Assembly: GCF_947568905.1 (NCBI RefSeq) | Contig: NC_079171.1 | Location: 25,358,001 to 25,422,000, forward strand | Direction: 5' to 3' | Source: Ostrea edulis | Lineage: Eukaryota | Length of the DNA stretch: 64,000 bases | In this document: piece after piece, positions 1,636-39,641 of the stretch | How positions within the stretch are numbered: the first letter of the stretch is position 1 | Layout: each line of letters begins with the position of its first letter | Notes under the pieces: generated by a model | What the model saw: only the letters and a program-made list of their open reading frames with translations | The model's database searches: none | Told to the model about the DNA's origin: nothing | Translations under genes and position numbers: made by a program

Positions 1636-3015
1636 TTGGGTATGAAGATTCAGCAGTTCTTGGTAGATTGCATCAAAAGCTACATCATGTGCATTAACAA
1701 GATTCGCTACGTCAATGCAGATAGTACCTTAAAGCTGGATGTGGAGAGTCAACTTGAGCAGACCTCACCCAAGACCCGCACCAAGGGTTCATCCAGACGA
1801 ATTTTAGCATCATGGCTGAGAGTAATATGCTTTTTTGCCATTGTACCACCCATGATTACCATCCAGAATGTCACCATGTTATCGACGGCCAACAAACCCC
1901 AAGCGATAACCCTGATCGTATGCTCAATTGTATCGTTTGCAGCTGGACTTAAAGTTTTCGTCCCAGATAACACCGGGTACGGATATATGTGGGAGATGAG
2001 GCGATACATGGTCCGCATAGTCATGGGGAACCTAGTTTTGACGCCTTGGATTGTGTACACCAGCACACACTACCCGTGGGGATCACCAATCTCGATACAA
2101 TGGATCACCGGTCTCATACTACCAGTGATGTTCATGAACTACGCGGCCGGAGTCATTCTAAACATGTTATATAAACTCCCTTACAGCTTGATTGCCGGAG
2201 TATGGAGATTCGCAGGATTAGCTACATCCTTGTATTCGGCAGCCCAAATTATCCTACCATCACTTGCTAAAAATGACACCACCTACAAAACAGATATGTT
2301 CGTGTGTTTCGCCATAGTAGCGTGCTGGTATGCCGTGTATACTGCCATGTTCGCCATCTTCCCACTCATTCGTCGCGATGATGACGAGTTTAGAAACACA
2401 GACGTATTCAAGATGCTCGATGTGTTGTATACCAACAATACCATCACGAAGTCTTCCGCCGAGTATACACAGTCGCTATTCGACAAATCGTTCTTAGACA
2501 CCATCTCTGGAGGCGCTCTACTACATATCGTATCCATGTTCATGAATACAGTAATTCTACTCACGGCAATCTACCTACCACACGAAGACTCCGCGCCCAC
2601 AATTCTCGCAACACACCCAACCATCGCATCGGGTCTGTCGTTCTTCACAATCGGAATGATTAAATTGCCAGTAGACTATGCTCTGACCAGCCCAAGCTTT
2701 AGATTGAAAGACCTCAGTACCTGTATGTTCGCCACCGTACTGGCGATATTCGGAATGTGTCTAATTGGCATGTCTGTAATCACAATCATCAGTATACAAA
2801 CTATCGTTATAGCCAAATATCCCCTGGTGTCAATGTGGATCTTGTTTGCAGCATCGACATTCTTTAGCACTCTCGCTACTGGAATTATGGACAAAAAAAC
2901 AATGTACGAGGAACTGGATTATGATAGTAGAAACACATATGCTAGCGACCATCACTTTTCTCTCTTGGGAGCAGTCTGTGGTGTGTGGTTCTTTTATGCA
3001 TTGTATACAATTTGA
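1636..3015 (+). CDS. Multi-pass membrane protein (about 11-12 TM)
   Basis: 459-aa ORF, likely ATG at 1642. Many hydrophobic helices around a central polar loop (RRDDDEFRNTD). Confidence 0.75.
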   Translation: MGMKIQQFLVDCIKSYIMCINKIRYVNADSTLKLDVESQLEQTSPKTRTKGSSRRILASWLRVICFFAIVPPMITIQNVTMLSTANKPQAITLIVCSIVSFAAGLKVFVPDNTGYGYMWEMRRYMVRIVMGNLVLTPWIVYTSTHYPWGSPISIQWITGLILPVMFMNYAAGVILNMLYKLPYSLIAGVWRFAGLATSLYSAAQIILPSLAKNDTTYKTDMFVCFAIVACWYAVYTAMFAIFPLIRRDDDEFRNTDVFKMLDVLYTNNTITKSSAEYTQSLFDKSFLDTISGGALLHIVSMFMNTVILLTAIYLPHEDSAPTILATHPTIASGLSFFTIGMIKLPVDYALTSPSFRLKDLSTCMFATVLAIFGMCLIGMSVITIISIQTIVIAKYPLVSMWILFAASTFFSTLATGIMDKKTMYEELDYDSRNTYASDHHFSLLGAVCGVWFFYALYTI

Positions 3016-3174: not shown

Positions 3175-5214
3175 ATGAACAAGCATAAGATTGTTAGAGT
3201 CTTGTACTGTAGAGCATATGTTTACAAACGGTGTCGGGACGAATGTCCTCACAAAGAATATGTGTGCCCAAACCCTCCCGGCAAATATCACATCGATGAT
3301 GACATGGCCAAACAACTAACCGTCTATATGCGGAGCAATAAGATACCTATTACCGTGGATCACGATGCTGAGCTTGATAGAGTGGGGGAGATTTATAAAG
3401 TAAGGGATACCTCGTCGGGAATATGCGTCGAATTCGTAATCAACAGAGTGGCATTTTTGCAAGCTATACAGAAAATGCACAAACTTTACAAAAGAAAGAA
3501 ATCTAAAACATCGTTCGATGATTTATTCAAAAATATATTCAGCAGCGTTAGTCTATCGCATAATACTGAGATGTGTACAGTTGATCACCTAGCGTTAGTG
3601 AATGTTCCGGCAAGAATGGGTACAGAGATCGAATTCATACCAAAACCTAATAACATTTCGCACGAACCCATGTATAATGGAACTAACAGTGTTGCGTACG
3701 GCCATTACATTTCTGTGTATATTTTGGATTATTTAAGATATCCCTTGCGGCAGGAAAAATTATCTTTGAATCGAATTCATAGCACTGAGTACGGTCAACC
3801 CATATTACAACCAAAGTACCTAACAGCATCAGCTGATTCTAACATTGAACCCGAACCCGAAATTATTACAACCATGGCATTTCGCAGACCAGACGCTATG
3901 CTCACAAAAGTATTATCTCCTCAATACGAGAATGTTGGACGTGTAGCCTATCACGATTACATGGCGCAAGAATTGCCCCATCCAGAATTCTACGAACCGA
4001 TCCCTAGGCCTCAACAATTCGGGTACGATCGTATCCGATCTAACAAACGATCGGCGGACTACGATCTCGATTACCCACAGGCCAAAATGGTTCGTAGAGA
4101 GTACAATCAACCCAGATATTATGCAGAAGAATATGTTCCCGCCGGAACTACCCAATTTCAGCAAAATCACTTTAGACCTATAGATTTACCGGAAGATGAC
4201 CGTAGATCTGCATTTTTGCAGTCTAGATACCCTAGATCCTACATGGATAGGCGTCCGGTAAGCCGAATGGGTCATATTGAAGATATGTATATCGATCAGT
4301 ACGAAGATCGTTTACCTCAGATGCGACCTCAGATGCAACCACAGATGCGAATGCGACAACGACCGATGGATCACCATTATCAGATGGATTCAGCTCAGAT
4401 CGATCGACCCATCGAGTCTCAACCGATGCAAGACTCCCGGTTAATTATGCAAACCCAACCTGGTCAGATGGAATCGCCACAGATTCAGCAAAGTAATCAG
4501 GTCGTTCAGCAGAGTAATCGGGACATTCAGCAGAGCCCTCCCGATATGCAGCAGAACACTCAACCCGATCATCAAAATTCTCAACCCGCACAACAGAACC
4601 CTCAGATTGTGCAGCAACGACCCCCGACCCGTCCTCAGACCGCTCAGCGCCGACCTCAGATGGTTCAGCAGCAACAGCAACTACCACAACAGCAGCCTCA
4701 GATTGTTCAGCAGCAACTACCACAACAACAGCCTCAGATGGTTCAGCAACAACTTCCACAACAGCAACAACAACAGCATCCTCAGATGGTTCAGCAACAA
4801 CTTCCACAACAGCAACAACAACAGCATCCTCAGATGGTTCAGCAACAACTTCCACAACAGCAACAACTTCCACAACAGCAACAACAACAGCAGCACCAGA
4901 TGCATCAGCAACAACTCCCACAACAGCTACAACAACAGCAGCATCAGATGATTCAACAAAATGCTGGTCTACCCATCGATGATATGGATATGGACACCGT
5001 AGATGTTGGATCGAATCGTCGGATGGTTAGGTCTCAACCATCGACATCTTATGGACTTGGATTTAGACAGTTCCAGAACACGAATGTAGATGCATCCATT
5101 GGGGAGTATGATGGTGCAATACAGCTTGCCGCAGAAAACTTTCAGGCTACCTACGACAAGATGTTTCCAAAAGCTAAGATTCCCATGAGATTCAATATCG
5201 ACGAACGCGTTTGA
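3175..5214 (+). CDS. UL26: Capsid maturation protease (assemblin) fused to a Gln-rich scaffold, UL26-like
   Basis: IPITVDH (catalytic His), SVSLSH (Ser), HLALVNVPARMGT (His/oxyanion Arg), release site YLTA/S, maturation site VDA/S near the C-terminus. Confidence 0.88.
   Translation: MNKHKIVRVLYCRAYVYKRCRDECPHKEYVCPNPPGKYHIDDDMAKQLTVYMRSNKIPITVDHDAELDRVGEIYKVRDTSSGICVEFVINRVAFLQAIQKMHKLYKRKKSKTSFDDLFKNIFSSVSLSHNTEMCTVDHLALVNVPARMGTEIEFIPKPNNISHEPMYNGTNSVAYGHYISVYILDYLRYPLRQEKLSLNRIHSTEYGQPILQPKYLTASADSNIEPEPEIITTMAFRRPDAMLTKVLSPQYENVGRVAYHDYMAQELPHPEFYEPIPRPQQFGYDRIRSNKRSADYDLDYPQAKMVRREYNQPRYYAEEYVPAGTTQFQQNHFRPIDLPEDDRRSAFLQSRYPRSYMDRRPVSRMGHIEDMYIDQYEDRLPQMRPQMQPQMRMRQRPMDHHYQMDSAQIDRPIESQPMQDSRLIMQTQPGQMESPQIQQSNQVVQQSNRDIQQSPPDMQQNTQPDHQNSQPAQQNPQIVQQRPPTRPQTAQRRPQMVQQQQQLPQQQPQIVQQQLPQQQPQMVQQQLPQQQQQQHPQMVQQQLPQQQQQQHPQMVQQQLPQQQQLPQQQQQQQHQMHQQQLPQQLQQQQHQMIQQNAGLPIDDMDMDTVDVGSNRRMVRSQPSTSYGLGFRQFQNTNVDASIGEYDGAIQLAAENFQATYDKMFPKAKIPMRFNIDERV
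4660..4950 (+). repeat. PolyQ / 48-bp tandem repeats (PQMVQQQLPQQQQQQH) in the scaffold
   Basis: Unit cctcagatggttcagcaacaacttccacaacagcaacaacaacagcat at 4732 and 4780, partial at 4828, within CAA/CAG runs. Confidence 0.9.
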
Positions 5215-6349: not shown

Positions 6350-6477
6350 ATTTTTTATTTTAATGCATGTTATACAAAATGGTACAATTAATAAAAAATG
6401 TCTCATCCTAAATATTACAAGACTGGTGTTTACCTTTAAATTATACAAAGAAGATTGGATACATAAAATGTACAACA

Positions 6478-7260
6478 TTATATTTTAAACAGAGCGAACC
6501 AATATGCAAACACTACGCCAAATTCAAAAAATGTATGAGACACGTCGTATGCAATATGGGTCCCCACACGATTATACTTGTTAATCTGAAAAGCCTGGAT
6601 TAAGTCTATGGAAAATATGTGGAACGAAGTGACTCCAATGATGGCTCTCACGGTTACGGGGATGCCTCCCATGTTCACCCAAGTGTACGAAGTTGCTAGT
6701 TTACATATTGGAACGCCCCATACTCCCAACTGTGTCAATACTAGCAAAATTCGGTTTCCTAGACGGTTTTGGTTGTTGACGAATATTGGGTACAATCTAA
6801 CTAGCGCCATTATGCAAATGTTTGAAACCCAGTCGTTCACACCCATAGATCCAATCATGTGACACATGAACGCGTACTTGATGCTCTGGTTTATTGCTAA
6901 ATTCACCCATCTGGTATAATCTATGCCATTCTCGTCACTTGTCACCCAGTCTTCAATCTTCTTCCACAAGCAAGTGTATCGAATCAGGAATGTTAGTGCG
7001 CTAGCCAATGTTGATATCATCAACGCCCAACCGACTCTAACGCTTGTACTCTCGTTCTTTTTGAACAATTGGTAATCCTTGTTAGGCGCACAATTTATAA
7101 CGATGTTCGCACCGCGACAAGGGAACCACTTGTGTTCAGTCGTGGTGAAAATCAATTGAGTGTTGTATACTTCCGTGAACATATTTAAAATGAACACTAG
7201 TGCCGATATTGCAACAAGTATCGACGTGCATACCAAGCCTAGCAGTCTGTGACACTTCAT
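6478..7260 (-). CDS. Heliorhodopsin-like 7-TM protein lacking the Schiff-base Lys
   Basis: 260 aa from the ATG at 7260. Short basic N-terminus, long TM1-2 loop, NGIDYTRWVNLAINQS resembling the HeR TM3 motif, GGIPVTV before TM6. No Lys in TM7. Confidence 0.6.
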   Translation of the reverse strand: MKCHRLLGLVCTSILVAISALVFILNMFTEVYNTQLIFTTTEHKWFPCRGANIVINCAPNKDYQLFKKNESTSVRVGWALMISTLASALTFLIRYTCLWKKIEDWVTSDENGIDYTRWVNLAINQSIKYAFMCHMIGSMGVNDWVSNICIMALVRLYPIFVNNQNRLGNRILLVLTQLGVWGVPICKLATSYTWVNMGGIPVTVRAIIGVTSFHIFSIDLIQAFQINKYNRVGTHIAYDVSHTFFEFGVVFAYWFALFKI

Positions 7261-7353
7261 CTTGATTGTAAAACTTGCACCGAACACTTGTAAAAGTCAT
7301 ATAATTACCATTGGTATAGAACAGTTTCACATTTATAAATAATATACAAATAA

Positions 7354-8717: not shown

Positions 8718-11700
8718 TTAAAAGTCTCCTTTTGTATTAGCTTCCAAGCCTTGGAGTATTGTGGATCCAGTATAAGCAAAGCATAGACCTAAATTGTCAG
8801 TTGCTGAGTGAAGGATCGCATTACTGTTATTAATATTATGATTAGATGTAAAAAGCTGAGTGTCTGTTGCACATTTTCTGGCAGAAGCGCATGCGATGGC
8901 GTCGGATCTGATTGGTGACCACGAAGTGAGCGAACATCCTGTCCCTGAATATTTCCCTGGATAATAACCGTTATTGTTCCCGCCAGCATATTCGACATTC
9001 TTGTTGTGCGTTTTAACTTCCCGCATTATCGTAGCCCGTTCTGGTACGAAATTACAGTACGGATAAAATAATCCACCATCTTTCTTGAACATATCAGGTC
9101 CGTAACCTAAAATGTTGGGGTTAAATCGCATGTTGTCACACATTAGATTTGTTGTGAAACATTCGGGGTTCAGACAATCATTCACTGCGTGGTTGAAGAA
9201 ACCATCATCGAAACTCTGTTGTGAGTCAAACTGTAGAGGAGATCTGCCTAGCGGACTCGTTCCTCTTTCTAAAATGTAACTGTCCTGCATAGGGTTCACT
9301 AGCACAGGGAAAAACATTTTACTCATCTGGTATGTACTATCGTTACCACTATATACGTCGGTCATTATGTCGACGTGGTTTGCATCATTAGGGTCGAATA
9401 CCATCGATGCGTCGTGTCCGTGAGTCATGACCTTGTAGGCGGACGACGATCTGACGGACGGTGTTCCGAGCGAATTCGGAGCGAACGTCGACTTCCCTGA
9501 ATATATGATCTTATCGACTTTGGCGCCGTTTGCATATGTCTGTTTGTGCGCTGTGTGCATAGCCTGGATTATATTCAGGGCATTTGGTTGAGCTATCACC
9601 ATACCGTGCGTTTCGACGTAACGGCGTTTGAAGAAATTCACACCGATTCCAGGGTTGATTCCAGAAGCCAATAGTTGTCGTAGATTACTGGCGTTGTTTT
9701 CTAGTCCTATGGTCAACCAAACAAACAACTCGGCGCGATCAGATTCGAGTCCCTTTATCATCGACATCAAGGCCGTTTTCATTTTGGTAACAAAATGTTT
9801 TGGACTGTTTTTAAACTCTCTACCGAATTCTCCGCACCAACCATTAGTCGTAGGTGTAATCATTTGCATCATGTGACGATTAATCAACCGGGTGTTGACT
9901 GCCAGGAATGTTAGACTTGATATTCCAAGCAAAGCGGTTCCTGTGTTGTACAATACGCGCGCATTGGATAGAAAAATTGATGCATTCATGTAGTAGTTAT
10001 CGATCATGTAATCGTTGTGGTAATACATCTTGTGTGCATTAGTACCCCGTCTAACCGCGGGTGCTGTGGCTAGATGTCCAAACGGAAATGTTGTAGATGC
10101 ACCTCCACTGTTTACTATGACATTCCACAAATAAATTGGGATATTGCCTTTAGTATGTTGTTTCCAAGATTTATGCGGAAATGGCACCAGGTTGCAAGGG
10201 ACGCCGGGTTTGTTGTTTAAAGAGGCGTAGCCATCCATCACGGAGTGCACGAAACTAGCTGCGTGAGACACGGATAGTGTGTGACGAACATTTCGACCGA
10301 TATCGTAATATACGGTCTCCTGAGGCACGTGGTGTGCACTGATACCGTTCAGCTGATAACAGTCTTTGAATATGATACCGGTGGGTACAAACTCGTCATA
10401 CCAAGCGTTGTGTACCAGTTTGGCATGCTTCATATTCTCGACAACCTTGGTTGGTCCAATATGGACTTCTGCCAGTAGGTATCGATTCTTCTTATGCGTT
10501 AGGAATAAGAAGTTGTCTGTGTCACCAGTAGTTACCTTGATGTTCATGTGTTCCTCGGGTTTAAAATCGTACCCTACACCATTTCGTTTAAGAGATGTGG
10601 CCGTAGCCATGCTAGTCATAGGGGTTAGATCGTCACTGGAGAACTGAGTTTCTCCTCGATGTTGAACAAGTGTGCCGCGACGACTTTCGATGCTGGAACT
10701 GTTTGATATCACGTCGATGATTTCTTTGGTACACACGATAACTCCGTCTATATCGTATCGCGTACCTTCGGACATCACATGGGGTCGTCTGTGCGGTGTC
10801 AGTGTCATACACGTGTTCCTCTCGAAAACGTTTAGCGCGTGTCTAACCCACGCTACAGGCCCCATGTTGGTACCAACCTTATTCATACCAAATGTATTCC
10901 TCTGGTAATTCAAGGTGAGCTCGCGGGAGTAGTCAGCATTATTGTAATTGTGCCTAGTCCCGCAAGTTGTGGGTAGAGTACTTATATCCGGAGACGAATT
11001 GAACAATGTCTCTGTGGCCTGAATCAATCCTCCGCTAATGAGAGATATGGTCGAAGAGTGTGCGCTGGCGTTACACATCTGTAGAAACCTCTCTATCATA
11101 TATATGTACTGGATTTGGTTGTAATCAACCTTAGCATCCAATGCTGTTTCCATGTGGTGGTAAATTCTATCCGGGGTGCGCATATGCGCCATCTGTTTAA
11201 GTATGTCGTTGTAATACTGATACAACTGTGTATCAATTTCTGTCCCTATCGTTAGGGCCATTTCGGGCCAACTTGCTGTGAATGCAATCATGACGGATGA
11301 AACTGCAGGGGTGTCTGCTCCCGGTACAGTGATTGTTGCTGGAGGAGTGGTGTCCACTTTCACCATCCACTTGAAATCGTGTACGGTCTCAGGTTTTAGT
11401 TCGGTGTGTGAAATAGCGAACGCGCAACCTAGTGGATCTTGGGCTAGAGATCTAGTTGTGTGATACAGGTAACAGTGACCAACCAAGTATGTTAATTGAG
11501 GCGCGAAGTCATTTATCGAGATTTTATCGTGCGTTCTCGCTTCCACGTACAACTGTTTGGGTAATTGTTGAACCCTTAACATGGGGTCGTTGTAGTCGAA
11601 CCTATCGATGTCCGAATCCGTATACGACGGACCTCGCGTATGTTGCGGTCCGGAAAAGCCATTGAATAACTTTAGACTATTCATTTTTGTCAATTGGTGA

Positions 11701-12539: not shown

Positions 12540-14696
12540 ATGCGGTACTTGACCACACCTCGAGGGACTTATGGTATCCCGTTCATTAGAAATTCAGATG
12601 GAGAACAATGTGCTAACGATTTAATGTGGGGATACATGTCGTACGTAGATACGTGCATTACCGCAATCAAAAACCATTACGAGAAATACATGTTATCTAC
12701 AATGGTCTGGCACGACCCTTCCAATATGACCATTGGTGCCACGTATCGTACGCAATATGTGACGAGACCAAATATGAGAGACCCATTCGATGATGATTGT
12801 GATATGGATGCAGAAGAAAACGAAGCGTCTGAGTCTGACAACAACGTATTCGAAGGGAATGTTGAACATATGCTATATATTTTAAACGAAATTAAAAAGC
12901 ATAGAAAACCTCTAGATATCGCCACGCATCTAATGAGAGATGATGGAAAACTGTTCGAAGCCTTTCAAAAGAGTTCGCTGTACGAACATTTGATGTACTA
13001 TATCAGATCGACAACTCCTGGGGTTCTCAAACATTTCGTTATGGCTCTCACACCCATGATTGGAATGGATACGTATGACATCGACCATTTCATAGCAATG
13101 TATACGCGCAGACATCACATGCAAATTATACCTCGTAGACATGGTAAATCATTTTGTATTTCATTGGGAATATCAGCAATGCTAGCATCGTACAGGGATA
13201 TTAAAGTCATGTTTGTATCGAAGGATCTCAGAAATGCAAAACGCATGTCTTCGGAAGTCACAGTGTTTCTCGCCAAGTGGGCTCTGGTGGAAAGAGCTGA
13301 ATACAAAATAAAACGAGACGAAGGAGGTTGCAGTTTTATTATGGTGTACCCAGGAAATACCACATCGGTATTCGATTCTACTCATGGTAGGAACGAAATT
13401 CGCGGACCAGATCCCCAAGTATGCTATATAGACGAAGCCTTAACGATTAGTGCTAGAATCACCCATTCGATATTGGCCTTGACGCATAAAGAATCTTGTA
13501 AGGTTGGAATATACTCCAGTCCGACAGCGTCTACTCAGAAAATGTTATTAAACTGCATATCCGTACTCACTAAACGAGATAGCGGGATCAATTTCATCAT
13601 GGTTAATTATTTCTGCGGATCTGATGATCACATGGAGTTTGCGATTAAACAGAGTGGTTGCAGAGACCTAATATTTTCAAAACCCAGACACATCAATTTG
13701 GACTTCACCAACAAGCTGGTATCCGATGTTTTAACAGGTAGCAACAAGATGTACTCGGACGAAATGGGTATCGTGACCATGACCGACCTAGTTAACACTC
13801 GAGACGAGTTTTATCGTAGCGATACAGACATAATCGTCAAACAGTTTTCGGCAAATTTCATTAACTACATATGTTCTTACGAATGTACAACTAATCATCG
13901 ACCGTCGTATGTGTACATATACATCGATCCGAGCTACAACTTCTCAGATCAGTCGGGTAACGGATTGTGTGCTGTTGGAGTAGAAGAACATAACGGGAAT
14001 GTTACACCGATCGTGTTGTACATGGCAGAACTTTTCAATAGAGTGCAGGATATGGTTAACGTTCAAACCAATATCGCTAAGATGGTGTTGAGTGCTATAG
14101 ATCACATTGATAAATATGTCGATGGAGGTGTTAAACCACAATACTTCATAATACTAGAAAACAACTCGTCACAAGCTTGTGCTCAAAGTATTTACAGCAT
14201 GATATCGAAATATATGGATCAAAATGTTAAACACCGATCGTATCTATATTATAGCGTTCCGAATGGTGGCGTTTCCAACAGGGATCCCATGACCTTGACG
14301 ACACAAAATACCGTTATGCCGGGATATCGGCTGGATCAAAATAAAACGCAAATTGTTTGGCATATTATGAACCGGTGTAACAACAGGCGTGTGAAAATAT
14401 GGGCACATTTAGGTGGTACAACATCATCAAATCTGTTACTGATGGAAAGATTTAAATTTCAAGCCCAAACATTTAGTATGGATGACTCGTCGCGTACTTA
14501 CTCTGGCAAGAAGACCAGAACTACAAGTGACGATCTTATTATTAGTTTTATAATGAGTGTGTACTTTTCAACAATGTGTTACGGAACTAGGCTCGAGCTA
14601 GCATCGAACTGGAAAAAGATATCGGGGATAAACAGAAATCAAAATGGCAAGGCTAATACCTCCGTCGGATATGCAGTTAGTCTTGCGAGCCGATGA
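12540..14696 (+). CDS. UL15: DNA-packaging terminase ATPase/nuclease subunit, UL15-like, unspliced
   Basis: Walker A IIPRRHGKS, Walker B CYIDEA, nuclease motifs YIYIDPS..SGNG, ILENNS and SDDLIISFIM, all in one ORF. Confidence 0.95.
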   Translation: MRYLTTPRGTYGIPFIRNSDGEQCANDLMWGYMSYVDTCITAIKNHYEKYMLSTMVWHDPSNMTIGATYRTQYVTRPNMRDPFDDDCDMDAEENEASESDNNVFEGNVEHMLYILNEIKKHRKPLDIATHLMRDDGKLFEAFQKSSLYEHLMYYIRSTTPGVLKHFVMALTPMIGMDTYDIDHFIAMYTRRHHMQIIPRRHGKSFCISLGISAMLASYRDIKVMFVSKDLRNAKRMSSEVTVFLAKWALVERAEYKIKRDEGGCSFIMVYPGNTTSVFDSTHGRNEIRGPDPQVCYIDEALTISARITHSILALTHKESCKVGIYSSPTASTQKMLLNCISVLTKRDSGINFIMVNYFCGSDDHMEFAIKQSGCRDLIFSKPRHINLDFTNKLVSDVLTGSNKMYSDEMGIVTMTDLVNTRDEFYRSDTDIIVKQFSANFINYICSYECTTNHRPSYVYIYIDPSYNFSDQSGNGLCAVGVEEHNGNVTPIVLYMAELFNRVQDMVNVQTNIAKMVLSAIDHIDKYVDGGVKPQYFIILENNSSQACAQSIYSMISKYMDQNVKHRSYLYYSVPNGGVSNRDPMTLTTQNTVMPGYRLDQNKTQIVWHIMNRCNNRRVKIWAHLGGTTSSNLLLMERFKFQAQTFSMDDSSRTYSGKKTRTTSDDLIISFIMSVYFSTMCYGTRLELASNWKKISGINRNQNGKANTSVGYAVSLASR

Positions 14697-22135: not shown

Positions 22136-23194
22136 ATGCGCAATCGTAAGAGGAAGGGTTCTCCCGACGAATTACATATCGGAGCATTCAAGACAACTAA
22201 AACCGATGATGGGTACGAGCAGACGGCGATATTCGAAGGTGTGCGGAAGTATATAGACGATAGGATGCAAATATGTTTTGGAGTATCGGAAACCTTCGAT
22301 AAGATACTCGAGGAGTATAGCGGGATAGATGTCGTGCGTACAAGCAATCAATACATCGCTCCATACGACACAGTTATTACCAAACCAACCAATCAAGACA
22401 ATCGTATCGATGAATCGTTTAAACGAGTGCTATTTTGTAGATCACACATGGGTTCGGGTAAAACTAGAGCGTTTAACCGATATGTGCATAAACGATCGTC
22501 CGCATTGATATTGTCCACTAGAGTGACTTATACCAATGATATAGTTTCTAAATACACACAGTTTATTAACTATCGGGATATTCCTCGCGAAACTCCAATC
22601 ACATACTTAGATCACCCAAAGTTAGTACTACAGTACCAGTCATTACGCAGAATTTTGGACATTGGTACCACTGAGAAAAACGCGCATTGGAGTGTCGTAT
22701 TCCTGGACGAGTTGGATGCCATATTCAAGGAAATGGTTTGTACTGGGACTATGGATGCGTATCAAAGAACTAAGAACTTAGCGTATTTCATCAAAGTTAT
22801 ATCCAACGCCAATATCATCATAGCGTGCGATGCTAACTTGACAAATTGGCACATAGACCTCATGATGCAATGTTTGACCGGTGTTAAAATTGGTATGGCG
22901 CGCATATTGGTTAACGATTACCCAAGGAGCATAACGTGTAATGCTAAACTTATAGAACTAAAAAATGCATCGACCATCTCAGCAAGCTGTATGGGAACGT
23001 TTTACAACGTATTTCGAAACACCAAGACTAACGACGATGAGAAATCTGCATTTAAGGCAGTCCTTAGTGCAGACGTACTGATAGCAAACGCTAGAAAATT
23101 GAGTTCGCGTCAGGAATTCATTTTTCTGAATCGATTGGCTGCAGTTTTCACCAAGTGCTATGCCGGAGATTTGGGATCTCACGACGAGAATCTA
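22136..23194 (+). pseudogene. UL9: UL9-like origin-binding SF2 helicase, 5' part, disrupted by Tc1
   Basis: RSHMGSGKT, LSTRVTY, LQYQSL, FLDELD and ACDAN parallel UL9 motifs I-III. 353 codons up to the TA insertion site. Confidence 0.85.
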
Positions 23195-24700
23195 TACTCA
23201 TGGACAAAAGAAACGTTACACATGAAAAAATTATAGTAAAACAATATTTTTTCGTATAAATAAATAAAAACTTGTTTAACAACACTTCATGCTTTACTGA
23301 TTACACTGGCAAACACAACAAATGTTAAAACCTAGTCATGCGTGAATTTATCGTTGATACCCGTAAACATGGTTTCGTGGATATCGCATTGCACGTGCAA
23401 AGAAAATCATTTTCATTTTTATCAAATACTACTCAAGGTGATTCAGGCAGTAAGAAAAACATCAAAATTTTCCAACATCTTCGCGTATTGCAATGCCCCG
23501 GCTCGACAGTTCCAGTCGCGAAAGAGCAATTGGCATGTTGGAACTTGGAGCGTCGCAAGCCGACGTTGCACGGCGATTTGGGGTTGCAAGGATCACGATT
23601 TCTCGATTATTGCACCGTTTCAACACAACAAATTCAACAGCAGACCGCCCCCGATCTGGAAGACCTAGGGTAACAACGCCCAGGCAGGACCGCATGATAC
23701 GATTACGTCATCTACGGAACAGAACGGAAAATCCAGCAAACACTGCTGTTGGAATTCCTGGATTGCGGCGAATCAGTCGCCGAACAGTTCAACGACGTTT
23801 GTCGGCTGCAGGTCTACGTGCACGACGCCCATACAAAGGACCTATGCTGACCCAAAGACACTGCCGAGAACGACTTCAATGGGCTCGACGTCACTTGAGA
23901 TGGAGGCTTGCAGACTGGAATCACGTTCTGTTTAGTGATGAATCACGTTTCATGCTGCGCCGAGTGGATGGCAGAACACGCGTGTACCGTAGACGCGGTG
24001 AACGCTTCTCTGATGGATGTGTGCTACGCCATGACCGCTTTGGAGGCGGAAGTGTAATGATGTGGGGCGGAATAAGTGGTAATCGACGAACAGATCTTGT
24101 ACCGATCATTGGGACATTAAATGCACAACGATACCGTAATGAAATCCTTGCACAACATGTCCGTCCCTTTATCGCTGCAAATGGCGGAATTTTCCAACAG
24201 GATAATGCGCGCCCCCACGTTGCAAGAGCCAACAGAGACTTTCTTGCCAACAATCACATCGACATCTTGCCATGGCCAGCACTTTCGCCCGATTTATCGC
24301 CAATCGAGCACCTCTGGGACCAATTAGACCGTCGAGTAAGACAACGCCGCAATCAACCGGAAACGCTTGAACAGCTTAGAACTGCTTTGCAGGAAGAATG
24401 GCAAAGAATCCCTCAGGTCTCCATCAATCGTCTCATTGCTTCTATGCGTCGTCGTTGTCAAGCTGTTATCGATAACATTGGTTCTTTCACTCGTTATTGA
24501 CATTGTGAATTGAATATCCGAAGTTAACACTTTCCGGCTTTGACTCCGTAATTTGTGTATGTTCAGATTCGGGAAACCTTAGATATTTGTTGTGTTTGAA
24601 CATTCAAATTTTATTTTTTTATTCCCAAATTATATTATATTTTCATGAAATAAAATTACAGTTATACATTTTGGTGTAACGTTTCTTTTGTCCATGAGTA
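23195..24700 (+). mobile_element. Tc1/mariner DNA transposon (1506 bp)
   Basis: Perfect 27-bp TIRs TACTCATGGACAAAAGAAACGTTACAC at 23195-23221 and 24674-24700; TA at 23193-94 and 24701-02. Confidence 0.96.
23493..24500 (+). CDS. Tc1 transposase (DD34E), intact
   Basis: Paired-like HTH N-terminus; FSDESRF, QQDNARPH, SPDLSPIE with 34 residues between the second D and E. Confidence 0.96.
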   Translation: MPRLDSSSRERAIGMLELGASQADVARRFGVARITISRLLHRFNTTNSTADRPRSGRPRVTTPRQDRMIRLRHLRNRTENPANTAVGIPGLRRISRRTVQRRLSAAGLRARRPYKGPMLTQRHCRERLQWARRHLRWRLADWNHVLFSDESRFMLRRVDGRTRVYRRRGERFSDGCVLRHDRFGGGSVMMWGGISGNRRTDLVPIIGTLNAQRYRNEILAQHVRPFIAANGGIFQQDNARPHVARANRDFLANNHIDILPWPALSPDLSPIEHLWDQLDRRVRQRRNQPETLEQLRTALQEEWQRIPQVSINRLIASMRRRCQAVIDNIGSFTRY

Positions 24701-24702
24701 TA

Positions 24703-26043
24703 TTATCTAACGATGGTGGCTACTCGTTATTTGTCGACGTTGTGCAGTTGAACAAACGATGCAGTGCCGTATGCTCAACTAAAAGAACTGCCAAAATGAT
24801 ATACGCGTTGTTTACTCAACATTTTGGTAGAACCGACGAGGAAATCATTCTCGTTACGGGTGACTCGACTACGTACGTGAAGAATACTTTCATGAACAAA
24901 ATCGCTTCGTGCAAGTTGTTGATTTACACGAGTTGCCTCAAAGTTGGCGTGGACATCTCCGATACCAAATTCGACAGGGTGTACACATTTATAGACCGCA
25001 GAAACCCAGTTCTCGTTTCAGACATGGTGCAGATGATTGGGCGTGTGCGACATAGTGATGAGATCGTGGTGTGTTGGTCCAGTACCAAATCGACTGGTTT
25101 CGATGGTGTCGATTCCTCTACTGGTGAACAGTTAGTTTGCTACAAGCGCGTACAATATCCCGAGAAACACGAATTGGCATCGAAAGTTATCAAACATATC
25201 AAATCGTTTGTCGGGATAGAGCGCGAAATGAACGCGTCAGGCATCGTGTTCGTAAATTGTCTGTTAAAGAGACTCACAATCAACATCGAAGTTGACATTT
25301 TAGTCAACGGTGTATTACATAGAGACGCGAAAAGTGCCGTGGATGCTGTGTGTGCAATTGAACCTGATACATTTGGAGAAGTGATTCAACGAATCAGCGG
25401 TAAGGACGCCTCTACAGAAGCTATTGATGTCAAAAATGCCATTTCTACGCACATGATCAATGTGACAAACATGTGTACGGGATGTGACTCGTACGAAATT
25501 TATACGAGACCTGATGCAGATACGAATATGAACACCAGTGCCAAGGAAATCCGATTCTTCAATTTCCTGTCATCGTACTACACCATAAAGGGTTTCGTGT
25601 CAGTACTGTGCGAATTTGAACCCAACAGATTGGTGAAGATTTGCAATGAAAGGAGGAGTTGTGTGTTAGATATAGATTTGTTCAGCGAATATCGCGACAA
25701 GAAAGCTGACATTCTAGATACATATGTGGACTGTATCAATTTCATAATCAAGAAAATCAAGAGTCTATCTAGTAGAGCCACAGAGTTGTCGTATACAAAT
25801 TTCCACGACTTCGTTAAAAACTTAAAACAGTATATGAATTATGAAGACAGATCTACGTGTTTAGAAGATGGTTTGATAAAGAGTCTGTACACCAATCTGG
25901 TCGATGCTGAGGAAGAAGATGATATTATATCAATGAAGCGAGCGATCGAATGCTTGTGTCCCACCAAGTGCTTAGACTTAAAATGGTTCGATATTGAGAA
26001 ATTTATATACTGTCAGTGTACCCACGATGTATATTATGATTAA
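24703..26043 (+). pseudogene. UL9: UL9-like helicase, 3' part
   Basis: LLIYTSCLKVGVD (motif V) and DMVQMIGRVR (motif VI). Joins the 5' part in frame (DENL-LSNDGG) to give 799 aa. Confidence 0.85.
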
Positions 26044-34335: not shown

Positions 34336-35250
34336 ATGGATGATTTGTATTATAAAACGCGTATTTACTCATCATGGGTATTCATTATGCAATTCGTAAA
34401 CTTGATATACATCATAGCATGTTTGTGTGCGTATAACACAACACGAAAACGATACACCAAGAAAGTGTTGATAGGGAAAATGACGTTACAACTGATGCCT
34501 ATGGTGGATACGATTTGCGACATGATAACGGGATATAAATTAGACTTGGGTCTAGGAGAGGTTATAACGTTGTGTGTCATAAGTGGTATAATAGCCACAG
34601 CCGGTCTACCATTCGTGATATTCTGGAGGTTTCAATATGTGAGATATGCCAAGCGTATCAACCAAGGGCGATATAGCGAAGATATAGAAATTGTTCACGA
34701 CATGCCCATATCTAAAAGACATTTGGGTTGGAAGACTAGTTTTTTTTATTGGGCGAAACCTTTCCAGCGTAAGAATATTCACAAACTGTTAAATCATAGC
34801 GGAGCCGTCAACTTAGTGTTTGGAATATGGACACACAACTGTATAATATTCATCATGAACGTGTGTCGAGCCACCACTATCGATAGCGATAATGTATCCA
34901 GAGTGTGGGACGTGTCATTCGCATCCATCCTGGGAATTTGCCTATTTTTGGGACTCATCATCCTAGATTTTTTCATGTTTAGATCATGCACCCATCACGC
35001 AATATTCCATCTCATCACCGTGGCAATGTTTGCCATAAGTTTACAGGCTGAAATTAACGGACTATTGGGCTACGACGAAGCTATAACTTTCGTGTTCGTT
35101 ATAGTAACAATTCCGGTCATCTTATTGAAAATTATAATTTCGGCATATTATAGAGACGAAGTTTACAGAGATGTGGTTTCCGAATTACGAGCTCAACTAA
35201 GATCTGCTAACAACGGACGTAGTGTTGAAGAGCATGCTCATAACGATTAG
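34336..35250 (+). CDS. Multi-pass membrane protein
   Basis: 304 aa, about 6-7 hydrophobic segments. Confidence 0.75.
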   Translation: MDDLYYKTRIYSSWVFIMQFVNLIYIIACLCAYNTTRKRYTKKVLIGKMTLQLMPMVDTICDMITGYKLDLGLGEVITLCVISGIIATAGLPFVIFWRFQYVRYAKRINQGRYSEDIEIVHDMPISKRHLGWKTSFFYWAKPFQRKNIHKLLNHSGAVNLVFGIWTHNCIIFIMNVCRATTIDSDNVSRVWDVSFASILGICLFLGLIILDFFMFRSCTHHAIFHLITVAMFAISLQAEINGLLGYDEAITFVFVIVTIPVILLKIIISAYYRDEVYRDVVSELRAQLRSANNGRSVEEHAHND

Positions 35251-35429: not shown

Positions 35430-36473
35430 TCATCTAATGTAACCCGGTTCCGATGGATCCAGTTTACGAATCATGATATTTGGACACTTTCTGGTGAGAA
35501 ATCCATTGATTGATAACTTGCACTTCAGTATGCCGTTGTATCTTGCGGCACAGATGCAAGTTTTAAAAATACAGCGCACAATGCTATTTTCCGGGATTTC
35601 ATCTAGAAAATTTGGTGGTATCACATCAGTATGATCGACTCTAAACTCATCAAATCTATGTCTCGATATAGGATCTTCGAAAAATTTGGTATGTTTTAGT
35701 CTCTCAACAACGTCGAAGAAGAACGGCACCCATTTTTGGAGGTAGTGTGGTTTGAGGTCGATAATCTCCTTGAGTAACGAGAAGTCTGTTCTTGTGATGT
35801 AGCGAATCGCTGATTTGGCAGCTCTCATATGTGGGTGAATCAAATCTTTATCGTAACCAAAACACACACCGGTGGGGTCGATGAATGTCATGAGCTTGGT
35901 ATAACTGTTGACGAAATCCAGGTCGCAATGTTCTGCATAATTTTCACCATCCGGACAGTTTGTGACACCGGTCTTGTTTAGTAGACACATTTTATCCCTA
36001 ACCATGCGCAGGAATTCTAATGCATGGTGTAGATGATCGACATCGAAAGTCATCACGCCTGTCAGGTCGAAAAATTTGTTTCCGGTAGCACCACCATTAT
36101 CGTATCTGCGACATATGCAAAGTCCGTGCAACCAATCCGTGTTTAGTGGTATCGAATTGATCACATTATCCAAGAAGGGTTTTCCATTTACGATCCAGGT
36201 GTCGAGGTCTTTAGATCCACATCCGTACCATACACATTTAGATATTTCGAACTGTATGTGCTGTACATTTTGGGTCTTCATTGGAGTTCTCACACTTCTC
36301 AGATTTGGATACTCCATGGCCATATTCGCAGGATGTGAAATTTTCGCAGCAGCTATCAATTTATCTTCCTCCTCTTTTTCTATATCACGCACATTTTGCT
36401 GAATCGCTGGTCTGCGGCGGCGTATTAGTATATTGACTCTATGGATCGCTCGGTCGTTTAACATTTTACCCAT
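35430..36473 (-). CDS. Hypothetical protein, paralog A
   Basis: 347 aa; aligns end to end with 36844-37890. Confidence 0.8.
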   Translation of the reverse strand: MGKMLNDRAIHRVNILIRRRRPAIQQNVRDIEKEEEDKLIAAAKISHPANMAMEYPNLRSVRTPMKTQNVQHIQFEISKCVWYGCGSKDLDTWIVNGKPFLDNVINSIPLNTDWLHGLCICRRYDNGGATGNKFFDLTGVMTFDVDHLHHALEFLRMVRDKMCLLNKTGVTNCPDGENYAEHCDLDFVNSYTKLMTFIDPTGVCFGYDKDLIHPHMRAAKSAIRYITRTDFSLLKEIIDLKPHYLQKWVPFFFDVVERLKHTKFFEDPISRHRFDEFRVDHTDVIPPNFLDEIPENSIVRCIFKTCICAARYNGILKCKLSINGFLTRKCPNIMIRKLDPSEPGYIR

Positions 36474-36843: not shown

Positions 36844-37890
36844 TCATCTAATGTAACCCGGTTCCGATGGATCCAGTTTACGAATCATGATATTTGGACA
36901 CTTTCTGGTGAGCAATCCATTGATTGATAACTTGCACCTCATTATGTCGTCATATCTTGCAGCACAGATGCAAGTTTTAAAAATGCAGCGCACAATGCTA
37001 TTTTCCGGGATTTCATCTAGAAAGTTTGGTGGTATCACCACAGTATGAGAGATTTTAAACTCATCAAATCTATGTCTCGATATAGGATCTTCGAAATTTT
37101 TTGGTTCTTTTAGTCTCCAAACAATGTCGAAGAAGAACGGTGTCCATTTTTGGAGGTAGTGTGGTTTGAGGTCGATAATTTCTTGGAGTAATGAGAAATC
37201 GTTCGGGTTTGCGACGTAGCGAATCGCTGATTTGGCAGCTCTCATATGTGGGTGAATCAAATCTTTATCGTAACCAAAACACACACCAGTAGGGTCGCTG
37301 CTTGTGAGGATCATAAGATTACTTTTGATGAAATCCAGGCTACAAGGATCTGCATAATTTAGGTCATCCGGACATTCTACGGCACAGGCCATGTTTAGCA
37401 TACACAGTTTATCCCTCAGCGTGCGCAGGAATTTTAATGCGTGGGATTGATGATCGGCATCGAAACTCATCACACCTCTCAGGTCGAAAAATTTGTTTCC
37501 GATACCATCACCGTCATCGTATTTGCGACATACGCAAAGTCCGTGTAACCAATCCTTTTTTAGTGGTATCGAGTTGACTACATGATCCAAGAAGAATTTT
37601 CCATCTATGATCCATTTTTCAAATTCTCTAGATCCACATCCCTCCCATATACAATCATATATTCCGAACCGTATGTGATTTACGTTTTGGGTCGCCATGG
37701 GAGTTCTCACACTTCTCAGATTTGGGCAGTGTTGAGCCCTCAGCGCGGGGTGTGGAATTTTCGCAGCAGCTATCAATTTATCTTCTTCCTCTTTTTCTAT
37801 ATCACGCACATTTTGCTGATTTGCTGGTCTACGGCGGCGTATTAGTATATTGACTCTATAGGATTCTCGGTTGTTTACCATTTTACCCAT
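36844..37890 (-). CDS. Hypothetical protein, paralog B
   Basis: 348 aa; same C-terminus (TRKCPNIMIRKLDPSEPGYIR) as paralog A. Confidence 0.8.
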   Translation of the reverse strand: MGKMVNNRESYRVNILIRRRRPANQQNVRDIEKEEEDKLIAAAKIPHPALRAQHCPNLRSVRTPMATQNVNHIRFGIYDCIWEGCGSREFEKWIIDGKFFLDHVVNSIPLKKDWLHGLCVCRKYDDGDGIGNKFFDLRGVMSFDADHQSHALKFLRTLRDKLCMLNMACAVECPDDLNYADPCSLDFIKSNLMILTSSDPTGVCFGYDKDLIHPHMRAAKSAIRYVANPNDFSLLQEIIDLKPHYLQKWTPFFFDIVWRLKEPKNFEDPISRHRFDEFKISHTVVIPPNFLDEIPENSIVRCIFKTCICAARYDDIMRCKLSINGLLTRKCPNIMIRKLDPSEPGYIR

Positions 37891-38710: not shown

Positions 38711-39641
38711 GGCTTCGAATGGAATAGATTGCGAATATGATCCTATCGACGGCTCTAATTATCCCGACGATACCGTCGAAGATGAAATTGAAGATGAAAT
38801 TGAAGATGGATCTGATGTCGAGACTGGTGTAGACTACGGATCTGATACAGACGATGTGTACACCGATGATGATACAGCTGATGATGCTGATGATGATGCT
38901 GATGCTGACGTTGACGCTGATGATAATAGTAATATTATCGATTTGTATAATCAAATCACTCCAGTTGCTAAGCGACAACCGATATGCGAGGGATCGATGG
39001 TGGTCGTCTTACACGGTATGCGTATCGAAGACGATGATAGCTATCACAAGAATTTGATATGTTCGTTCGCTAGTAGCTGGTGGCAGAATCAGATAACTGA
39101 TATGAAGGCGAATAAATGTCCTCGAGTTAACGCCATACACTGCTCTATAAAGCATATGATACCCGGCGAATGTGTACAATACTCAGTTAAATCTAAATCG
39201 TCGAACGCGTTCGTTATTCCACACCAGTTCATGGAGAAACGAATAATCCCTTCTCTGTCGGATACGGTATGTTCATTACAGCATAAGATAATACCCCCCT
39301 CCAAATACACGATAATACCGGAAATTCATAAGATGACTAACGATACCGTTTGCGGATTATACCAATATGCATTGTATATCAAATACGGTGTTAAACCCGA
39401 ACATTGGACCAATCTGAATCCGGCTATAGGTCCGGGATCTGATACAAAAAGTAAATTACAGAACGATTGCTGCTGGGCCAATATACTTATTCTATGGGTT
39501 AAATTTAATCAATTCGAACTATTAATGCTCGATCACGATAATTGTACCAATGCTAACAATTCCGCTAGAATTCGTTTAATATACGAGGTGGCCCAAAGAT
39601 GGTTTACCAAAATCGAGCGTGTTGGCGCCCTAAAGATGTAG
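38709..39641 (+). CDS. Hypothetical protein with an Asp/Glu-rich N-terminus
   Basis: Likely ATG at 38709 (MASNG); acidic tract followed by a Cys/His/Trp-containing domain. Confidence 0.65.
   Translation: MASNGIDCEYDPIDGSNYPDDTVEDEIEDEIEDGSDVETGVDYGSDTDDVYTDDDTADDADDDADADVDADDNSNIIDLYNQITPVAKRQPICEGSMVVVLHGMRIEDDDSYHKNLICSFASSWWQNQITDMKANKCPRVNAIHCSIKHMIPGECVQYSVKSKSSNAFVIPHQFMEKRIIPSLSDTVCSLQHKIIPPSKYTIIPEIHKMTNDTVCGLYQYALYIKYGVKPEHWTNLNPAIGPGSDTKSKLQNDCCWANILILWVKFNQFELLMLDHDNCTNANNSARIRLIYEVAQRWFTKIERVGALKM

Follow-up and report, generated by a model that had tools for sequence, protein, structure and literature searches.

We analysed a stretch of 64,000 nucleotides of the oyster Ostrea edulis (contig NC_079171.1, positions 25,358,001 to 25,422,000; hereafter the window) and describe in it a gene for a protein of 260 amino acids (aa) which very probably descends from the heliorhodopsins (HeRs). 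The gene belongs to a herpes-type virus that is integrated in an animal chromosome. The seventh transmembrane helix (TM7) of its product is devoid of lysine, and therefore the protein likely binds no retinal and acts independently of light. The former retinal pocket appears to have been rebuilt with conserved charges, a set which is new to this protein.

Results

An intact gene under purifying selection

The open reading frame (ORF) at 6478-7260 on the minus strand starts with ATG and encodes a product of 260 aa. A preliminary description of the window had quoted five motifs and a loop with two cysteines, and all of them were found as written, the cysteines being C48 and C57. Searching the genome (895 Mb, 52 contigs), we detected four intact copies of the gene, all located on contig C8 (77 Mb), which share 93-100% identity and contain no stop codon. 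The ratio of nonsynonymous to synonymous substitution rates (dN/dS) was 0.14-0.28 in all six copy pairs. Moreover, a search of 1.84 billion representatives revealed one outside relative, P0003, which is encoded on a 2.8-kb JGI contig and shows 47% identity over the full length. The intact copies, the dN/dS values and this independent full-length relative confirmed that the ORF is real and more than a chance reading frame, and the gene was shown to be under purifying selection. This signal is a record of the viral lineage, present expression being a separate matter.

A homologue search with the single sequence returned the window's own protein as sole match, and a profile search only this protein and P0003 among the best 8000 candidates (lengths 143-457). 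Further relatives were absent from the viral contigs, metagenome contigs and annotated phages searched, and no credible match to the 260-aa protein was found in NCBIfam, PHROGs or the PDB sequences. The rest of the host genome was searched for an HeR paralogue, a search which gives a lower bound; none was found, and thus a host donor is not indicated. Among the 35 in-gene read variants listed (with 14 further ones besides) 19 were synonymous and the remaining 16 mostly conservative, and K128, R155, D219, D239, H242 and E246 were untouched by these 35. One contig from sequencing run X2 (depth 5.4) lacks 62 bases at window positions 6520-6583; this is either a broken allele or an assembly artefact.

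As had been proposed, the protein is predicted to span the membrane seven times, with seven long helices in both structure models described below. Lys and Arg together number eight across the four predicted inside segments, one across the short outside segments and six in the long loop, a distribution that fits an N-terminus on the inside. The loop between TM1 and TM2, which in HeRs forms a beta-hairpin, comprises 48 aa and contains no strands in the models, where its predicted local distance difference test (pLDDT) score is below 50. A short helix between TM2 and TM3, which is a feature of HeRs, covers residues 99-107 and 99-108 in the two models.

Relationship to heliorhodopsins

Remote homology to HeRs had been suggested, and Pfam, the ESM Atlas, an HeR profile and the fold comparison all pointed to this family. 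The Heliorhodopsin family (PF18761) was the only Pfam match (E 1.5e-4, residues 66-229). In the ESM Atlas the ten best family-assigned matches belonged without exception to the HeR family or clan, for the protein as well as for P0003, at scores of 0.90-0.91 where recognition values lie below the reliable range. Natural HeRs were gathered from contigs of viruses and prokaryotes, the seed set being checked against solved HeRs. On a profile of 21 HeRs the protein scored 19.0 bits, a value reached by none of 2000 full and none of 2000 local shuffles (maxima 11.3 and 15.1); scores of -5.8 to 6.1 bits were obtained for the reversed sequence and for four further membrane ORFs from the window. The profile comparison with HeRs proposed in the preliminary description also agreed, with HHalign values of 87-91%. 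The match is collinear across TM2-TM6; R117, W118, G137 and W181 are invariant over 21 alignment rows and P201 is nearly so.

For an unbiased model AlphaFold2 was run on five rows without HeRs, which resulted in seven helices. In a search with a wide structure aligner the top nine rows were all microbial rhodopsins, TaHeR being at rank 2 (Z 9.8, root mean square deviation (rmsd) 4.9, 183 aligned). With a second, HeR-guided model HeRs ranked first (Z 21.1, rmsd 2.8, 218 aligned; best match in BFVD at E 2.9e-4), as expected from its input. An origin from G protein-coupled receptors was rejected, these receptors being placed below microbial rhodopsins in all three structure rankings. The seven-helix fold of microbial rhodopsins is thereby given to the protein by prediction only.

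Several results weigh against an HeR ancestry. The score for PF18761 (21.6 bits) is under the cut-off of 26.7; two of the three other gene copies match this family (copies at 20-22 bits) and one, L004, does not. P0003 has no Pfam HeR match and scores 9.5 bits on the HeR profile, which was equalled by 3 of 4000 shuffles. The pLDDT of 46 marks the unbiased model as one of low confidence, and its Z value is under the 13 required by the aligner for helical bundles. The Foldseek comparison that had been proposed gave for this model no match with E <0.001, and HeR 48C12 appeared at rank 3 with E 1.1. The second model (pLDDT 68) was guided by 16 HeR rows and is thus biased toward HeRs. On the whole, these results support an HeR ancestry, though a remote one. 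Because the lysine, the counterion and the Pfam cut-off are missed, the protein stands outside the HeRs as defined and is very likely derived from them. As a microbial-rhodopsin homologue without the TM7 lysine it falls within Rh-noK.

Loss of the retinal lysine and a predicted charged pocket

TM7 (residues 236-258) contains no lysine in any of the five available sequences, in either register, and the Schiff-base lysine of the HeR motif SxxxK is thus missing. The lysines closest to it are K228, in the loop before TM7, and K259 at the C-terminal end. Covalent binding of retinal is therefore improbable. The predicted replacement of the counterion Glu by Asn was found at N120 (Ser in P0003), a position occupied by Glu in all 20 reference HeRs. 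In the RWxEY motif of TM3 the RW is retained, Glu is changed to Asn or Ser and Tyr to Leu. The TM2 His, which is present in 20 of 20 references, corresponds to F91.

The preliminary description had further assigned a Glu to the Schiff-base Lys. This agrees with the end points of the superpositions, which fit Glu246, and disagrees with the sequence alignments, which give Val250, so the lysine site falls at one of these two residues. In the MAFFT alignments Val250 (Thr in P0003) occupies the site and Glu246 lies one turn earlier. When 18 TM7 registers were scored, Val250 was best at -0.9, with -7.5 for Glu246 and -2.3 for an end-truncated register at 257. The spacing from Pro to Lys is 46-57 in the 20 HeRs and 49 in half of them (10/20); it would be 49 for Val250 and 45 for Glu246. 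Moreover, the Val250 register puts Asp239 at the invariant TM7 Glu. In both structural superpositions residue 260 pairs with TaHeR residue 253 and, the TaHeR lysine being residue 238 (derived), an ungapped helix would put the lysine site at 245-246. This support for Glu246 is indirect, as the aligner reports end points only. Going by residue numbers, most type-1 rhodopsin rows presumably end 14 residues past their lysine. Val250 as the certain lysine site was not upheld, being weakened by the superposition end points.

The positions 3.53, 4.51, 4.54 and 6.54 in generic numbering line the retinal (PMC13739731). They align with Lys128, Arg155, Pro158 and Asp219 of the oyster-virus protein, and in the 20 HeRs they hold an invariant Met, neutral residues, an invariant Gly and Gly/Ala, respectively. 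Columns 128, 155, 219 and 246 are charged in none of the 20 HeRs. Glu246 and His242 probably face the pocket space from TM7. In the five sequences 13 of 18 mapped pocket positions are invariant, as are 11 of the 13 helix residues that are charged or His, versus 63 of 136 others (Fisher p 0.009); the five sequences are four close copies plus P0003, hence these figures represent one deep comparison. They suggest a former retinal pocket rebuilt with the conserved charges Lys128, Arg155, Asp219, His242 and Glu246.

Setting in an integrated virus

The herpes-type context of the gene was borne out, as DNA_pack_N/C and Herpes_ori_bp domains both exceed their cut-offs in the window. The best solved match of the terminase is the tripartite terminase subunit 3 (E 5e-29). 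In known herpesvirus families the terminase ATPase gene is spliced. The genome contains four terminase copies. Every one of them has a copy of the HeR-derived gene at a distance of about 6-7 kb, and the four pairs are grouped in two clusters on a single contig. Immediately upstream of the window there is a family B polymerase (L074:3355-7524). The gene had been placed among capsid-assembly genes, which is true of the terminase; the 988-aa and the presumed triplex ORFs lack a credible match. Candidates for an HK97-fold major capsid protein, triplex and portal had no match in Pfam, NCBIfam or PHROGs, and RNA polymerase subunits, which belong to the nucleocytovirus-like informational module of Mirusviricota, were absent among the 41 ORFs of the window and 25 of 104 flanking ORFs of at least 200 aa. 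Judged by eye from its motifs, the 679-aa ORF probably encodes a maturation protease and scaffold.

As the viral DNA forms part of a 77-Mb contig and carries insertions of a Tc1 element and a 21-kb Maverick, it is integrated. The Tc1/mariner element (23193-24702) has 29-nt perfect inverted ends and an intact transposase ORF of 335 aa, and its insertion splits the helicase gene into 22136-23236 and 24694-26043. The Maverick/Polinton (40902-62016, 21 kb) is nested in the provirus and has 172-nt inverted ends at 98%. It encodes a protein-primed PolB in two ORFs, an ATPase, a protease, a jelly-roll capsid protein and an integrase with chromodomain, and also bears a CARD-PC4 fusion gene (60071-61054). 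The provirus forms a large rearranged array at C8:25258001-25522000 (L065-L084) and at about 52.26-52.38 Mb, with inverted and tandem block duplications, expanded families of signal-peptide-like Cys-rich proteins and insertions of retrotransposon-type integrases.

Viral DNA was found in 20 of 24 listed sequencing runs from 7 studies; three runs are labelled oyster metagenome and the others all carry the label of one organism, and among the runs listed one may be the genome's own source. The host is likely an oyster. Reads over window positions 6400-7330 numbered 4, 45 and 30 in runs X22-X24, from 1.31-1.38 Gb each, which suggests roughly tenfold differences in copy number from one individual to another.

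The other multi-pass membrane ORFs, four in number and located at 81-1286, 1642-3015, 34336-35250 and 39599-40378, have no credible family match; considered as HeRs, they were rejected for want of a match to the HeR profile. Two tandem paralogous ORFs (35430-36473 and 36844-37890; 347 and 348 aa) have no family match. The coordinates of the principal features are given in Table 1.

Table 1. Features of the window, with the evidence on which each assignment is based
Feature	Position	Strand	Basis
Gene for a 260-aa, predicted seven-helix protein, very probably HeR-derived, no TM7 lysine	6478..7260	minus	ORF, copies, profile, models
TM1-TM2 loop, residues 28-75; C48 and C57 kept in P0003	7036..7179	minus	predicted outside, pLDDT <50
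TM3, residues 115-136, with R117, W118, N120, K128	6853..6918	minus	alignment
R155 in TM4, predicted pocket position 4.51	6796..6798	minus	uncharged in all 20 reference HeRs
D219 in TM6, predicted pocket position 6.54	6604..6606	minus	Gly/Ala in 20/20 reference HeRs
TM7, residues 236-258; Y238, D239, H242, E246 conserved, without lysine	6487..6555	minus	alignment, superposition
Herpes-type terminase ATPase-nuclease, one unspliced ORF	12540..14696	plus	domains, solved match
Herpes origin-binding-protein-like helicase gene, Tc1-interrupted	22136..26043	plus	Herpes_ori_bp
679-aa ORF, probable maturation protease and Gln-rich scaffold	3175..5214	plus	by eye, no database match
988-aa protein, no match	8718..11684	minus	Pfam, NCBIfam, PHROGs, PDB sequences

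Discussion

V2HeR3, a viral HeR, was described as a proton channel and proposed to depolarise host cells; in its group polar residues occupy the outer half, which is otherwise hydrophobic (PMC9448325). By analogy, we tentatively propose that the HeR-derived, retinal-free protein might serve as a light-independent proton or ion conduit in host membranes, a reading to which we give well under an even chance; that its job is conduction rather than something else we rate only a shade higher. The protein would be synthesised at host membranes, its N-terminus facing inwards, and would bind no retinal. K128, R155, D219, H242 and E246 would, with N124 and Q125, line the space filled by retinal in HeRs, and probable buried ion pairs may form between K128 and E246 at the old Schiff-base end and between R155 and D219 at the ring end, with an R117-D239 cluster on the cytoplasmic side. 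Such a polar core could conduct or gate protons or ions without light, and membrane potential or organelle pH would be altered during infection. Some points speak against a conduit. The gate of V2HeR3, E191/W195, corresponds via TaHeR I199/F203 to T211/I215 and is not kept. In membrane proteins of any kind charged helix residues tend to be conserved, and ion pairs buried in the core might take the place of retinal as mere structural filler. The pocket was mapped with a single divergent relative and from alignments of about 15% identity.

The same pocket, with its conserved basic and acidic residues, could instead bind a polar or amphipathic host molecule such as a fatty acid or an anion, so that the protein would be a retinal-free ligand or pH sensor which signals via its cytoplasmic loops without bulk flux. 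Decanoate is bound in the structure of a retinal-free proteoopsin, according to the entry title (8cnk), most tested HeRs were without transport (10.1101/2025.11.27.691015), and yeast opsins lacking the lysine were reported to regulate the H+-ATPase and pH (PMC7714340). However, the cytoplasmic loops measure only 10-18 aa and carry no fused effector domain, and we consider a sensor unlikely. To a similar degree we doubt a lipid scramblase or a membrane scaffold for envelopment or nuclear egress, where the buried charges would only steady an empty pocket. Opsins of bacteria, archaea and animals were described as scrambling lipids independently of retinal, for which a conserved motif is not required (10.1101/2025.08.17.670764); in each of the four copies the gene is flanked by presumed morphogenesis genes; and mollusc herpesviruses captured the membrane-remodelling gene CLCC1 (PMC12639132). 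Nevertheless, HeRs do not occur in the available text of the scrambling study (0 occurrences), scrambling uses surface grooves and so by itself does not explain the conservation of core charges, and gene neighbourhood is generally weak evidence in herpesviruses.

Light sensing through a swapped charge pair, with retinal on K128 of TM3 and E246 of TM7 as counterion, is suggested by the invariance of K128 in the five sequences, its retinal-contact position 3.53 and the new acid in TM7. Yet the predicted ring end (R155, P158, D219) faces neutral, invariant Gly and Gly/Ala residues in HeRs, aromatic pocket residues are changed to Leu or Ile, and a natural microbial rhodopsin whose lysine has changed its place is not known to us. 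Such a photoreceptor is thus very unlikely, and slightly less likely still is its fuller version, a working rhodopsin of a shellfish virus, derived from the HeR of mirusvirus-like relatives, whose lysine moved from TM7 to TM3 (K128) and whose counterion moved from TM3 to TM7 (E246). An unrelated viral seven-helix protein resembling HeRs by chance or convergence would account for the single-sequence searches of the 1.84 billion representatives and of the PDB sequences, which found no HeR, and for the long branch to the HeRs (about 7.8 changes per site). The collinear match over TM2-TM6, the invariant R117, W118, G137 and W181, the shuffle controls and the agreement of several search types nonetheless render it quite improbable. 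The invasion of the provirus by transposons and the 62-base skip in one X2 contig would suit a decaying relic without function; against this, all four copies are intact at dN/dS 0.14-0.28, and the listed read variants are mostly synonymous or conservative and spare the key charges. For the viral lineage a relic is largely refuted, and we hold it to be the least probable of these explanations. The tentatively preferred reading remains a retinal-free conduit derived from HeRs.

A phylogeny had been suggested for finding the donor. Our tree of 23 rows, from which L015 and L061 (truncated C-termini) as well as duplicate and motif-less loci were left out, and in which no row is known as a mirusvirus or eukaryotic HeR, gave a clade of three whose branch measures about 7.8 changes per site, which precludes naming a donor. 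Eight of the 20 reference HeRs have a loop cysteine at the position of C57; in alignment A4 it is confined to viral-contig rows. The best ESM Atlas cluster is 83% viral. The shared cysteine and the best Atlas and BFVD matches point weakly to viral HeRs. HeR is a core gene of mirusviruses, which are protist-infecting relatives of herpesviruses; 64% of their genomes contain it, and its expression is high (PMC10132985). The oyster-virus gene may have been inherited from a common ancestor or captured in a filter feeder.

The function of HeRs has yet to be settled, and in animal viruses microbial rhodopsins are unexpected. An HeR derivative maintained by selection in an animal herpes-type virus after loss of the chromophore site would indicate that the fold is useful without light and beyond protists. 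This one small gene, which mirusviruses and the herpes lineage share in kind, allows ideas of a channel, a sensor or a scramblase to be compared. Furthermore, a divergent multi-copy provirus of herpes type whose depth varies between individuals is relevant to shellfish virology.

Among known systems, endogenous deep-branching Herpesvirales were described in starfish and ribbon worm, between Ortho- and Malacoherpesviridae (10.1101/2025.04.19.649669); the available text of that study contains no mention of rhodopsin (0 occurrences). Together with Teratorn of fish and Malacoherpesviridae, these endogenous viruses are likewise of herpes type, and integration in an animal chromosome is common to such elements. 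An HeR in an animal herpes-type virus was not described in the literature searched, which covered few subscription papers and no supplements. Giant-virus and mirusvirus HeRs, including V2HeR3, are viral genes as well. However, the lysine is retained in all 11 viral-contig rows and their carriers infect protists, neither of which applies to the oyster-virus protein, which also misses the gate residues of V2HeR3. Unlike the HeRs of protist viruses, its gene has an animal-associated carrier with a herpes-type terminase and an origin-binding protein.

The canonical HeRs TaHeR (6is6) and 48C12 (6su3) resemble the oyster-virus protein in the predicted seven-helix fold, the predicted N-in topology, the long TM1-TM2 loop, the short helix after TM2, the Arg-Trp of TM3, Gly137, Trp181 and Pro201. 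They share about 15% identity with it, and it is without the TM7 lysine, the TM3 counterion and the TM2 His and has charged residues at predicted pocket positions. In a Saccharibacteria HeR (L037:539-1357) the retinal lysine is replaced by Gln and the TM7 Tyr by His, but this HeR keeps the EY motif of TM3 and a recognisable similarity to HeRs, whereas the oyster-virus protein is far more remodelled and groups apart. About 600 of 5,558 microbial rhodopsin genes are lysine-less (PMC7714340). These opsins, namely Rh-noK, the opsin-related proteins of yeast and lysine-less Saccharibacteria HeRs such as L037, share the rhodopsin fold without the retinal lysine and are cellular. The oyster-virus protein is very likely a lysine-less opsin variant of this kind in an unexpected carrier and with an unusual charged pocket.
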